Source: Escherichia phage BA14
Sequence record: NC_011040.1
Strand: one strand, 5' to 3'
Length of the DNA: 39,816 nt
Under the pieces are notes generated by a model. That model ran no database searches. It had not been told where the DNA came from and saw only the letters and a list, made by a program, of their open reading frames with translations. This document shows, piece after piece, positions 5,668-36,209 of this stretch; within the stretch, counting starts at the first letter, position 1, and every line of letters begins with the position of its first letter. Both the position numbers and the translations under genes were made by a program.

Positions 5668-5727
5668 CCCTTGGGGTTTCCCTACTTTAAGATAACTTTA
5701 AGTTTAACTTTAAGAGGAAACATAATC

Positions 5728-6285
5728 ATGTTTACTTTCATCACTTCAGTAGGCGCTCTCGTATCAACCATTCTTGCAGCAACATACTATAATCGTTCAA
5801 AGGTATTTCTCACTAAGCTAATCAAAGAAGAGAAGAACTCTCATGCACTCAAAGAGAGACTTGAAGATGGATGGCGAGAGAAGCAGGAACTAGCTGGTCG
5901 AATCCGTACCTTAGAGTTCGAACAACAATATGACATGTCGAACCAACGAGAACTCATTGAGCGTCTACGTGCTGAGGCAGTGGAGTACCGCAAGGAACTT
6001 AAAGAAGCCAAGAAGATTATCCGTGAGTATACACACAGTGACATCACGTCTATCAAGTTTACTGCTCACATCCCGGATGCTGGATGGAAGCGCACTGAGT
6101 TCAAGCTGGGTCTTGGCTCGTGTGGTAAGCAAGTCACATGTCTACATTGGGTTGAACAAGCCGACCGCTATCTGCTGACACAGACGTGCACTGACGGTGA
6201 GCGCAAAGAGTTCACCTACTATAAGAAAGATGTAGCGGGTCGCATTGAGATTGCACGTAAGGTTGCAGACAATACGACTCACTAA
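5728..6285 (+). CDS. Hypothetical membrane-anchored coiled-coil protein (gene 1.05 position)
   Basis: 185 aa from ATG 5728 preceded by AGAGGAAAC RBS and a TTAACTTTA epsilon-like motif; N-terminal TM helix, charged heptad-rich middle, Cys-containing C-terminus; sits between gene 1 and gene 1.1. Confidence 0.7.
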   Translation: MFTFITSVGALVSTILAATYYNRSKVFLTKLIKEEKNSHALKERLEDGWREKQELAGRIRTLEFEQQYDMSNQRELIERLRAEAVEYRKELKEAKKIIREYTHSDITSIKFTAHIPDAGWKRTEFKLGLGSCGKQVTCLHWVEQADRYLLTQTCTDGERKEFTYYKKDVAGRIEIARKVADNTTH

Positions 6286-6292: not shown

Positions 6293-6300
6293 CACTGAAA

Positions 6301-6343
6301 GTTAAACTCAAGGTCATCACTTCTGGTGGCCTTCATGATTAAC
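6301..6343 (+). promoter_or_regulatory. RNase III-type processing hairpin (R1.1 position)
   Basis: Lower stem GTTAA/TTAAC, internal loop, upper stem AAGGTCAT/GTGGCCTT; same element recurs at 6821 and 13571. Confidence 0.6.
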
Positions 6344-6376
6344 TGTCATTAACTATACACACAAGGAAACAACATT

Positions 6377-6798: not shown

Positions 6799-6818
6799 TA
6801 CGACTCACTAATGCGAGA
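6796..6818 (+). promoter_or_regulatory. Phage RNAP promoter TAATACGACTCACTAATGCGAGA (phi1.3-like)
   Basis: T7-family promoter core overlapping the gene 1.2 stop; initiating region GCGAGA is atypical. Confidence 0.7.
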
Positions 6819-6820
6819 GA

Positions 6821-6862
6821 GCTAAACTCAAGGTCATCTATACGGTGGCCTTTGTGATTAAC
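6821..6862 (+). promoter_or_regulatory. RNase III-type processing hairpin (R1.3 position)
   Basis: GCTAAACTCAAGGTCATctatacGGTGGCCTTTGTGATTAAC, second copy of the 6301 element. Confidence 0.6.
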
Positions 6863-6899
6863 TTTTGTTTACTTAATAACCAACAATAGGAGTTCCATC

Positions 6900-10900: not shown

Positions 10901-12710
<1,810 letters not shown>

Positions 12711-13263: not shown

Positions 13264-13566
13264 ATGGCTATTAAATTCCCCGGCAATACCATCCGTCTGT
13301 CCGATACCGTTGACCAGTATGCTCGTCGAGTGCACATCAACGTCCGTAATGGCAAGGTCACTCTGGTCTACCGTTGGAAAGACCATAAGTCCACCAAGGC
13401 GCACACACAGCGTGTAACTCTGGATGATACACAGGCAGGTCGTCTGCTGGCTTCCGTTGCTGTAGCCGCTACTGTGGCTGTAGGTGAAGACAAGGTTCGT
13501 GGTGTCCTGCTCGGTAAGACCGTCGAAGCTGAGGGCAACATGCTGGCTGAGAAGTCTGAAATCTAA
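13264..13566 (+). CDS. Hypothetical protein (gene 4.5 position)
   Basis: 100-aa ORF with upstream AGGAG; position between 4.3 and the R4.7/phi4.7 elements. Confidence 0.55.
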   Translation: MAIKFPGNTIRLSDTVDQYARRVHINVRNGKVTLVYRWKDHKSTKAHTQRVTLDDTQAGRLLASVAVAATVAVGEDKVRGVLLGKTVEAEGNMLAEKSEI

Positions 13567-13570
13567 AAGA

Positions 13571-13611
13571 GTTAAACTAAAGGTCATCTCCGGGTGGCCT
13601 TCGTGATTAAC
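13571..13611 (+). promoter_or_regulatory. RNase III-type processing hairpin (R4.7 position)
   Basis: GTTAAACTAAAGGTCATctccgGGTGGCCTTCGTGATTAAC, third copy of the 6301/6821 element, immediately upstream of a phage promoter. Confidence 0.6.
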
Positions 13612-13624
13612 TTTTGTATGAAAA

Positions 13625-18070: not shown

Positions 18071-18129
18071 TGTTCGCAATCGTAGCCTTCGCTATGGTGT
18101 GGGCTGCATTTATAGCTAAGAGTGTGTAA
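18070..18129 (+). CDS. Possible 19-aa hydrophobic peptide (gene 6.3 position)
   Basis: ATG overlaps the gene 6 stop (TAATG); MFAIVAFAMVWAAFIAKSV; very short, weak support. Confidence 0.25.
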   Translation: MFAIVAFAMVWAAFIAKSV

Positions 18130-18157
18130 CTCTAGGCATTCTTCTCGACAGTGAAAT

Positions 18158-18180
18158 TAATACGACTCACTATTGAGAGG
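18158..18180 (+). promoter_or_regulatory. Phage RNAP promoter TAATACGACTCACTATTGAGAGG (phi6.5-like)
   Basis: Full T7-family match through -1; initiating GAGAGG. Confidence 0.8.
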
Positions 18181-18232
18181 GGTGCCTATATGATACCTAC
18201 TTTAAGTTCTAACTTTAAGGAGAACATTAATT

Positions 18233-21739: not shown

Positions 21740-21762
21740 TAATACGACTCACTATTGGGAGA
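21740..21762 (+). promoter_or_regulatory. Phage RNAP promoter TAATACGACTCACTATTGGGAGA (phi10-like)
   Basis: Perfect family consensus 4 nt after the gene 9 stop; drives the capsid gene. Confidence 0.9.
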
Positions 21763-21930
21763 GAGATGGAATCCCACGATTGGAGGTCACACAGACCATT
21801 AAGTTGCTGTGGCATCTGGCTTCCGGGCTTGTCGTGGGAATGCTCCCTTTGAGTGATACACAATGAGAACCAACTCGTTTCAAGTAGTACCTCACACATT
21901 AAACTTTAAATCAACAGAAGGAGATTCAAC

Positions 21931-22974
21931 ATGGCTAACATTAATGGTGGACAACAGATGGGTAAAGACCAAGGTAAAGGCATGAGCGCTGGTGATAAAC
22001 TGGCTCTGTTCCTGAAGGTCTTCGGTGGTGAAGTTCTGACTGCATTTACCCGTACCTCCGTAACTATGAACAAACACCTTGTGCGTTCTATTCAGTCCGG
22101 TAAGTCTGCGCAGTTCCCTGTGCTGGGTCGTACCAAAGCTGCTTACCTGCAACCGGGTGAGAACCTTGATGACAAACGTAAAGACATGAAGCACACTGAG
22201 AAGACCATTAACATTGATGGTTTGCTGACTGCTGACGTTCTGATTTACGACATCGAAGACGCTATGAACCACTATGACGTGCGTTCTGAGTACACCGCAC
22301 AGTTGGGTGAATCTCTGGCAATGGCTGCTGATGGCGCGGTTCTGGCTGAAATGGCTAAACTGTGTAACCTGCCGTCTGCGTCCGATGAGAACATCGCAGG
22401 TCTCGGTAAGGCTCATGTACTGGAAGTTGGCGAACAGTCCGCTCTGAAAGGCGACCAAGTTAAGCTGGGTCAGGCGATTATCGCACAGTTGACTCTGGCT
22501 CGTGCCAAGCTGACCAGCAACTACGTTCCTTCAAGTGACCGTGTGTTCTACACCACTCCTGATAACTACTCTGCGATTCTGGCTGCTCTGATGCCTAACG
22601 CTGCAAACTATCAGGCACTGATTGACCCGTCTACTGGTTCTATCCGCAACGTCATGGGCTTTGAAGTAATCGAAGTTCCTCACCTGACTGCTGGTGGTGC
22701 TGGCGAAGACCGTACAGAAGAGGGTGTAAATCCGACTGGTCAGAAACATGCGTTCCCTGAGACTTCCTCTGGTGACACCCGTGTTGCTCTGGACAACGTT
22801 GTCGGTCTGTTCAATCACCGCTCTGCCGTTGGTACTGTTAAGCTGAAAGACATGGCACTGGAACGTGCTCGTCGAGCTAACTTCCAAGCAGACCAGATTA
22901 TCGCTAAGTACGCTATGGGTCACGGTGGTCTGCGCCCTGAAGCATGTGGCGCGCTGGTTTTAAAAAAGTCTTAA
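21931..22974 (+). CDS. 10A: Major capsid protein 10A
   Basis: 347 aa, RBS GAAGGAGA; collinear with T7 gp10A (KLALFLKVFGGEVLTAF, FQADQIIAKYAMGHGGLRPEA). Confidence 0.97.
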   Translation: MANINGGQQMGKDQGKGMSAGDKLALFLKVFGGEVLTAFTRTSVTMNKHLVRSIQSGKSAQFPVLGRTKAAYLQPGENLDDKRKDMKHTEKTINIDGLLTADVLIYDIEDAMNHYDVRSEYTAQLGESLAMAADGAVLAEMAKLCNLPSASDENIAGLGKAHVLEVGEQSALKGDQVKLGQAIIAQLTLARAKLTSNYVPSSDRVFYTTPDNYSAILAALMPNAANYQALIDPSTGSIRNVMGFEVIEVPHLTAGGAGEDRTEEGVNPTGQKHAFPETSSGDTRVALDNVVGLFNHRSAVGTVKLKDMALERARRANFQADQIIAKYAMGHGGLRPEACGALVLKKS

Positions 22975-35849: not shown

Positions 35850-36111
35850 CGATAAATCTTTGATTCAATTCCTTGAGATGCTGGACACTGAGATGGCTCA
35901 ACGTATGCTTGCTGACTTGCAGAATGATGAACGCCGAACACCTCAACTGTACAACGCAATAGGGAAACTGTTAGAGCGCCACAAGTTCCAAGTCTCCAAG
36001 TTACAGCCAGACCGTAACATCCTTGGTGGACTTGCTGATGGCCTAGAAGAGTACCAGAACTTGGTAGGCTCCGATGGTCTGACTGAAGACGAGAAGTACA
36101 CGCTGAACTGA
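35842..36111 (+). CDS. 18: Terminase small subunit (gp18)
   Basis: 89-aa ORF overlapping the holin end, RBS GGAGGG; size and position of T7 gp18. Confidence 0.8.
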   Translation: MSNDKSLIQFLEMLDTEMAQRMLADLQNDERRTPQLYNAIGKLLERHKFQVSKLQPDRNILGGLADGLEEYQNLVGSDGLTEDEKYTLN

Positions 36112-36122
36112 TGGTAATACTC

Positions 36123-36146
36123 AAGGCCACTACATCTAGTGGTCTT
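36123..36146 (+). promoter_or_regulatory. RNase III-type hairpin (R18.5 position)
   Basis: AAGGCCACTA-catc-TAGTGGTCTT, 10-bp stem, between gene 18 and gene 18.5. Confidence 0.5.
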
Positions 36147-36209
36147 TATGAATTATCAACACAACTCACGGTGACGCTACGTGAAATCTGAGAAATGGGG
36201 AGGGTAGTT

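Follow-up and report, generated by a model that had tools for sequence, protein, structure and literature searches.

An optional, pseudoknotted RNA module within the 5'-terminal stem of the capsid mRNA leader of Escherichia phage BA14 and other T7-group phages

Why does the major capsid (gene 10) mRNA of Escherichia phage BA14 begin with a leader of 174 nt? The stretch analyzed here (NC_011040.1, 39,816 nt, referred to as the window) belongs to a T7-group phage of the Berlinvirus type with 13 T7-type promoter matches on the + strand, and the other leaders behind phage promoters in it measure about 13-90 nt. The capsid leader (21757-21930, + strand) runs from G21757, the +1 of a phi10-type phage RNA polymerase promoter (TAATACGACTCACTATTGGGAGA, -17 to +6, 21740-21762, + strand), to the capsid ATG at 21931-21933. 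The core of this promoter, TAATACGACTCACTATT (21740-21756), has one mismatch with the T7 consensus, and the homologous site is annotated as phi10 or phi10A in the phages Yepe2, Kvp1, and FE44. An initial annotation of the region had placed a phi10-like promoter about 174 nt ahead of the ATG, which the coordinates bear out, and had described the leader as several times longer than others in the genome; it is indeed longer, the factor being only roughly 2-5. The comparisons reported here indicate that the length comes from one optional block of RNA with a conserved, pseudoknotted fold.

Alignment of the spacer between genes 9 and 10 with those of relatives places this 78-nt block, called here module A (21765-21842, + strand), within a 5'-terminal stem formed by GGGAG and CUCCC (P0). 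The long form is common to Salmonella phage BSP161, which is the best DNA match of the region (98.6%), and to S523, PZJ0206, PP74, and D226. However, FE44, Kvp1, and Yepe2, with the same promoter and an identical downstream leader, carry 9 nt (CAACACGTT) in place of 21765-21842 (GGGAGAGA-CAACACGTT-CTCCC), and their leaders are 106-110 nt long. Erwinia phage FE44 is a very close relative, as the window proteins are 96-100% identical to its own over most of the genome (100% for gp9 and 98% for gp10). Because such close relatives with the same promoter are without the block, the length of the leader is due to the block rather than inherent in capsid leaders. The initial annotation had also stated what would speak against its proposal, namely related phages with the same promoter, a short leader, and identical expression, or a lack of conserved pairing in alignments. 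Relatives with the same promoter and a short leader do exist (FE44, Yepe2, and Kvp1), whereas structure prediction and covariation analysis reveal conserved pairing in 19 distinct homologues.

The block folds into three helices (P1-P3) and a 4-bp pseudoknot, and this fold is under selection. The pairing test behind this statement compared 19 distinct sequences, aligned in register and drawn from Berlinvirus, Przondovirus, Teseptimavirus, and Eapunavirus, with controls in which the 3' partners were slid by 1-3 columns and with 500 shuffles. In the homologues, 96.4% of the cells are able to pair, compared with 35-53% in the slid controls, and compensatory changes, with both sides changed, are found in 16 of the 29 pairs. 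Covariation scores 0.52 in the homologues and 0.03-0.18 in the slid controls, and none of the 500 shuffles reaches 0.52. For example, P1 (UCCCACGA at 21772-21779 with UCGUGGGA at 21832-21839, + strand) occurs in eight different sequences, that of the metagenomic variant L135 included, and all 8 of its pairs covary; this is the stem that the initial annotation had listed in the DNA (TCCCACGA and TCGTGGGA), and its arms are perfectly complementary. P2 (GGAGGUC at 21782-21788 with GGCUUCC at 21818-21824, + strand) is nearly invariant in the homologue alignment, its G:U and U:G pairs being fixed in 19/19 sequences and its central pair being A:U, C:G, or U:G. In P3 (CACAG at 21790-21794 with CUGUG at 21807-21811, + strand), three of five pairs show compensatory changes. 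P0 itself, GGGAG from +1 (21757-21761) with CUCCC (21843-21847), had been proposed as a possible pairing and is supported by both the comparative test and RNAalifold; one of its pairs switches between A:U and G:C (7 versus 12 sequences). The leader is therefore structured, as first described, although the single internal stem then listed left out P2, P3, the covarying pseudoknot, and a second hairpin at 21862-21879.

The pseudoknot pairs GAUG (21765-21768, + strand) with CAUC (21813-21816), which lies in a 6-nt bulge (21812-21817), and it is paired in 19/19 sequences. In the lineage of Pila, L045, and L109, GAUG:CAUC is replaced by GACU:AGUC, both variable pairs changing together, and those four changes make up most of the handful of differences between the copy in Pila and that in the window. 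A relaxed scan for pseudoknot variants beyond these two found none. Also, RNAalifold independently gives P0-P3, with two additional U:G pairs, and under this fold P1-P3 form a stacked helix of about 22 bp, continuous on the 5' strand and interrupted on the 3' strand by two bulges of 5-6 nt, GCAUCU (6 nt) and GGCUU (5 nt). The unconstrained minimum free energy (MFE) structure of the leader to +35 is the same fold, and the MFE structure of the whole leader includes P0. Thermodynamics alone is weak or uninformative in this case, with z = -0.3 for the leader folded to +15 and z = -2.1 for the 94-nt 5' domain alone, where 8 of 200 shuffles fold at least equally well.

The pseudoknot joins the strand beside the base of P1 to the bulge at the top of P2, and this would require P1 (8-9 bp) and P2 (7-8 bp) to be folded back side by side at the lower bulge, an arrangement that fits their fixed and nearly equal lengths. 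The junction nucleotides GAA, UGG, GGCU, CG, and UG are invariant. Moreover, the invariant G:U pairs, the fixed orientation after promoters, and the absence of a conserved reading frame argue that selection acts on the RNA of the + strand. Other pairings considered by inspection, between the lower bulge and the CAAG tail, between UUGG and the loop of the second hairpin, and between GGAAUCC and GGCUUCC, are not conserved across the homologues and were rejected.

The position of the module was compared with that of other leaders in a survey of about 80 capsid loci from IMG/VR. All surveyed leaders with a T7- or T3-type GGGAG start open with a stem of the first transcribed bases (GGGAGA...UCUCCC or equivalent) and, by inspection, so do most of the more distant ones. 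The window leader belongs with them, its stem starting at +1, being closed by the downstream CUCCC, and leaving no free 5' tail. In this survey and in the alignment with FE44, Kvp1, and Yepe2, P0 matches in position the short 5' hairpin of FE44, Yepe2, T7, and T3. The interior of the +1 stem, on the other hand, is hypervariable across T7-group capsid leaders, the stem-loop spanning from 19 to 91 nt (T7, 21 nt; FE44, 22 nt; K11, 42 nt; T3, 66 nt), with the 91 nt of the window being the longest in the survey. Other unrelated inserts occupy the same place in L029, L030, L035, L042, L051, L092, and L102; that of L092 is a near-perfect hairpin of roughly 25 bp, and that of L051 has the words GGCAUC and GGCU in common with the window element. 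The interior of the +1 stem at late promoters thus looks like a slot for exchangeable structured RNAs at the 5' end of late mRNAs.

Module A is found only in phages. BLAST and pattern scans located it in the phi10 leader of many Klebsiella phages of the KP32 type (Przondovirus), of Serratia phage Pila (Teseptimavirus), and of Klebsiella phage 5OI88. In Enterobacter phage phiEap-1 (Eapunavirus) it stands in the phi9 leader, upstream of the scaffold gene, the phi10 leader of the same phage having a short hairpin only. The element spans four genera, and in every normal context it starts 6-8 nt after the +1 of a late promoter (GGGAGA(GA)GAUGGAA). A covariance model of it (R1) finds one copy in the window, at 104 bits, and none in T7, K11, or the late region of T3. 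A metagenome scan added only copies of the Klebsiella and Berlinvirus types, together with the variant L135. No match was found in 5,426 E. coli genomes, and seven pattern matches among 100,044 species genomes were all rejected by R1; three matches of the first, strict pattern were chance occurrences in coding DNA.

A copy in Yersinia phage vB_Yep_15 (L153, 1300-1870) was given no weight, because the locus is anomalous and most of gene 10 is missing. There, no promoter precedes the element, genes 9 and 11 are only about 570 nt apart with a 64-aa "minor capsid protein" called between them, and the major capsid gene is not found where it normally stands; the locus may be a misassembly or a defective genome. 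A search for a partner gene found no open reading frame (ORF) of the window that is present in all element-plus genomes compared (Pila, KN4-1, and phiEap-1) and missing from all element-minus ones (T7, K11, and FE44). An example of the mosaic gene content of these phages is the window ORF at 5671-6285 (204 aa), with 44-50% identity to proteins of the gp1.05 region of K11, KN4-1, and phiEap-1 and no counterpart in FE44, T7, or Pila.

The module is independent of the ribosome-binding site (RBS). In most phages it lies >80 nt away, and in the window the predicted accessibility of the Shine-Dalgarno sequence (SD; GAAGGAG, 21917-21923, + strand) and of the AUG is 0.61 and 0.72, respectively, compared with 0.51 and 0.54 in the short leader of FE44. 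As these values are no lower than in FE44, the RBS is not masked, and direct translational repression by RBS pairing, one form of the regulation that had been suggested for this leader, is unsupported.

Comparison with described RNAs gave no relative of the module. With Rfam 15, the window region and four homologues yielded no credible match up to E = 10, riboswitch and ribosomal-protein-leader families included, and ARAGORN detected no tRNA or tmRNA in the element. Scores for similarity or complementarity to 16S, 23S, and 5S rRNA were within those of shuffles. By inspection, a class II pause signal of T7 RNA polymerase (ATCTGTT), T7 primase sites, CsrA GGA sites, a loop E motif, and mimicry of CRISPR repeats were rejected, and a literature search found no description of the element. 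There is also no conserved reading frame over it on either strand, as stops and 1-nt indels differ among the homologues. Public records call small "hypothetical proteins" over the element on one strand or the other (L003 453-584, PZJ0206_16; L012 393-524, Pila_036; L120 422-559, 5OI88_00040), and because no frame is conserved among homologues these annotations are probably spurious. Module A is a new, well-supported structured RNA, best placed as a variant with the 5'-terminal leader stem-loops of T7-group late mRNAs.

RNase III sites were modeled separately, with a covariance model (R2) trained on seven T7 sites and two window sites, whose consensus has a lower stem, an internal loop, and an upper stem AAGGUC...GGCCUU, and which was run with filters off and E up to 10. 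R2 recovers T7 R6.5, which is absent from the training set. In the window it detects six sites (978-1042, 2911-2977, 6296-6359, 6814-6878, 13564-13624, and 36109-36170) and a weak one at 18122-18200, which by position correspond to R0.3, R1, R1.1, R1.3, R4.7, R18.5, and possibly R6.5.

What the module does can be proposed with less assurance than its fold. We tentatively favor, at somewhat below even confidence, a role in cis at the 5' end, where the module would shield the capsid mRNA and, in read-through transcripts, probably mark a point of processing; its influence on stability, cleavage, and the responsible enzyme are all inferred. A stability or processing role at the RNA level is also the best reading among the proposals of the initial annotation. 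GGGAG from +1 pairs with CUCCC 86 nt downstream, as the 5'-terminal stem of T7-group capsid leaders, and the pseudoknot ties the otherwise single-stranded GAUG segment to CAUC in the upper bulge. The first ~90 nt of the most abundant late mRNA could then be locked in a closed fold with no free 5' tail, which would limit 5'-end-dependent attack by RppH and RNase E, while the A/U-rich initiation region would stay free. In transcripts that read through from upstream promoters, the module would probably also punctuate the boundary of genes 9 and 10 or signal processing there, as the promoter-proximal RNase III hairpins of T7 do. Phages would exchange the module by recombination in the conserved sequences that flank it, the identical promoter on one side and the downstream leader on the other being the likely natural crossover points.

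The closest known counterpart is the 5'-terminal stem-loop of T7 gene 10 (GGGAGACCACAACGGUUUCCC), which raises mRNA abundance and expression according to a passage of PMC6146998 that cites Mertens et al. 1996. In both leaders the stem starts at +1 and pairs GGGAG with a downstream (U)CUCCC, the aligned position is the same, and an A/U-rich spacer and a strong SD follow. However, the T7 stem closes a 5-nt loop, whereas that of the window encloses 81 nt (21762-21842), 78 of them being the covarying pseudoknotted block, and the stabilizing effect has been shown for the T7 version only. A second likeness is to the T7 sites R3.8, R6.5, and R13, which are promoter-proximal GGGAGA hairpins and RNase III sites, and to the canonical R0.3, R1.1, and others. 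Like the window element, these are irregular hairpins located directly at a phage promoter, within polycistronic transcripts of the late or middle class, and they could, as here, provide the upstream mRNA with a 3' hairpin and set the 5' end of the downstream one; unlike them, the window element misfits the canonical consensus and carries a pseudoknot as well as two large bulges, both on one strand. The T4 gene 32 leader offers a third comparison, with a small H-type 5' pseudoknot that has gp32 as its partner and is followed by an unstructured A/U-rich leader. As in the window, a strongly expressed phage mRNA has its pseudoknotted domain at the extreme 5' end, tens of nucleotides before the RBS and separated from it by an A/U-rich spacer, although the T4 knot is H-type and that of the window bridges the 5' strand and an internal bulge across two helices.

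Several points weigh against the protective and processing role. A plain 22-nt hairpin occupies the same position in near-identical phages and suffices there, so that 5'-end protection alone leaves the elaborate fold, the pseudoknot, and ~25 invariant nucleotides of P2 and the junctions unexplained. Under the permissive settings given above, R2 finds no match in the capsid leader (21740-21935); RNase III substrates do not typically have two bulges of 5-6 nt or a pseudoknot that folds back; the covariation of the pseudoknot derives from a single lineage; and the proposed cleavage and change in half-life are deduced from comparison. Since protection does not explain the sequence-constrained core, readings based on a partner, on RNase III, or on action in trans are also kept. 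A partner would fit this core well if the module were a specific recognition RNA whose fold binds a core protein of the phage, a protein of the host, or a small ligand and thereby tunes translation or decay of the capsid or scaffold mRNA, in analogy to the T4 gene 32 leader, where the 5' pseudoknot nucleates gp32. The nearly invariant P2 with its fixed G:U, G:C, and U:G pairs, the invariant junctions, the fixed helix lengths, and the pseudoknot exceed the needs of a generic stabilizer, and the placement ahead of gene 9 rather than gene 10 in phiEap-1 suits a portable operator. Nonetheless, this is unlikely, because genome comparison gave no co-occurring phage gene, the distance to the RBS is large and its predicted accessibility unchanged, a terminator or other expression platform is absent, and neither the riboswitch and ribosomal-protein-leader families of Rfam nor the rRNA comparisons gave a signal. 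A long irregular hairpin cut by RNase III ("R10"), separating the gene 9 mRNA from that of gene 10, is quite unlikely. T7 transcripts are processed by RNase III (PMC6938266), and T7-like phages put RNase III hairpins right at late promoters; the helix of about 22 bp in P1-P3, with P0 in addition, and the lack of canonical R2 sites in the late region of the window (18-36 kb) would agree with such a site. Against it stand the failure of R2 in the leader, the two bulges, one of them held in the pseudoknot, the invariant unpaired nucleotides, which cleavage does not account for, and the T3 record, which annotates R6.5 and R13 and nothing at phi10.

Action in trans, as a decoy or anti-defense RNA or as a released stable small RNA, which the strongest late promoter would supply in very many copies and which phages would swap as a cassette, would account for a compact conserved fold that occurs only in phages, is optional among near-identical genomes, and sits in a hypervariable slot where different phages have unrelated structured inserts. 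Yet a conserved single-stranded seed is missing, as the P3 loop and the lower bulge vary, the element resembles neither CRISPR repeats nor any Rfam family, and there is no clear association with host genus and no sign of release from the mRNA, which makes this explanation very unlikely. That the element has no function as RNA and is instead a small ORF, a hairpin acting at the level of DNA, or an inserted piece of neutral or selfish DNA is highly improbable. Its dispensability in close relatives, the automatic small-ORF calls in PZJ0206, Pila, and 5OI88, and the terminal inverted repeats formed by P1 could be taken in this sense. However, extensive compensatory change keeps P1 paired while its sequence varies freely, so its arms do not serve as repeats to which a protein binds; on the opposite strand, the invariant G:U pairs would turn into C·A mismatches; and the reading frame is unconserved on both strands, the upstream frame from ATG 21863 being broken in T3-type leaders and in L087 and L042. 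The covariation thus largely excludes an insertion without function, a small ORF, and a DNA-level element. Finally, it is possible, if doubtful, that module A, with its ~85 nt, three helices, long-range pseudoknot, and invariant core of P2 and junctions, represents a class of structured phage RNA not described before, which acts via a specific partner or chemistry and, next to the tRNA-like module described below, is one of several leader cassettes traded at late promoters. An RNA of this class could sense a protein or ligand, divert a host factor or defense system as a decoy, or process itself in a new way.

Few expression elements have been studied as well or used as widely as T7-group leaders, and the leader of the window adds to them a conserved pseudoknotted domain that is absent from databases. 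If the most abundant late mRNA is stabilized or processed by the module, T7-based expression would gain a portable part of natural origin for the 5' untranslated region; if the module binds a partner, this model family of phages would prove to have a further, so far unknown level of control or of interaction with the host. The pattern of a cassette slot possibly carries more weight than any single copy, with unrelated RNAs swapped between phi9 and phi10 leaders and between genera, and the slot is a concrete, testable system for the evolution of RNA-level regulation in phages by cassette exchange.

Downstream of module A, the leader has a second hairpin, HP2 (AAUGAG at 21862-21867, loop AACCAA, CUCGUU at 21874-21879, + strand), followed directly by a conserved single-stranded tail, UCAAGUAGUA (21880-21889, + strand). 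HP2 occurs once in the window. A comparison of 11 leaders (Berlinvirus, T3, K11, and others) shows it paired in every one, with compensatory changes in three of its six pairs; hairpin and tail are common to Berlinvirus, T3, K11, KP32-type phages, and others and are not present in T7. ATG 21863 opens an upstream ORF of 40 codons, whose start is TTG in T3-type leaders and which has in-frame stops in L087 and L042. As its start and stops vary, the hairpin rather than a peptide is the conserved feature. Next comes the A/U-rich motif AACUUUAA (21902-21909, + strand), described in the initial annotation as epsilon-like. The epsilon enhancer of the T7 gene 10 leader (UUAACUUUA) is a 9-nt complement of 16S rRNA nt 458-466 near the SD. 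The motif is indeed present in the window, but with only 7 contiguous nucleotides of this complementarity (AACUUUA with UAAAGUU within nt 458-466), an extra A breaking the 9-mer; the distance of the motif from the SD exceeds that in T7 by 7 nt, and the motif is disrupted by indels in FE44, Kvp1, and Yepe2. In the DNA of the window, AACTTTAA has four copies (5694-5713, 18211-18218, and 21902-21909), compared with 1.2 expected by chance. All four are on the + strand in leaders just 3' of phage promoters (three leaders), and the sequence looks like a recurring leader motif.

Another cassette of the same +1-stem slot is a tRNA-like module, which is likewise unannotated and traded between phi9 and phi10 and between genera. 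Its fold is unrelated to that of module A, which has no tRNA-like feature. It is found in Klebsiella phage KN4-1 (L150, 20600-20659), L029 (~2353-2411), L043 (~1400-1460), and L047 (~1427-1487) and is carried by 276 phage records, standing at phi9 in most phages, as in KN4-1, and at phi10 in L029; KN4-1 and L045 have the tRNA-like module at phi9 and the window-type module at phi10. It consists of a 9-bp acceptor-like stem from +1, one hairpin, and a perfect T-arm (GAAGG-UUCGAGU-CCUUC) that runs directly into the 3' acceptor strand, the D arm being absent. Compensatory changes are observed in the hairpin and the T stem, the MFE z is -3.3, and there are sub-threshold matches to tRNA-Sec (21 bits, E = 0.02) and to mascRNA. 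This suggests RNase P/Z-type processing of late transcripts. Also, a second element with a T-arm (GGUCAG...CCGGGUUCGAUUCCCGGACUGACC) occurs in K11 (L014, ~10975-11040) and KN4-1 (~11020-11085), 3' of a K11 promoter annotated only as "phi" (10908-10930) and just before the small ORF that precedes gene 4, and it may be another tRNA-like leader element.

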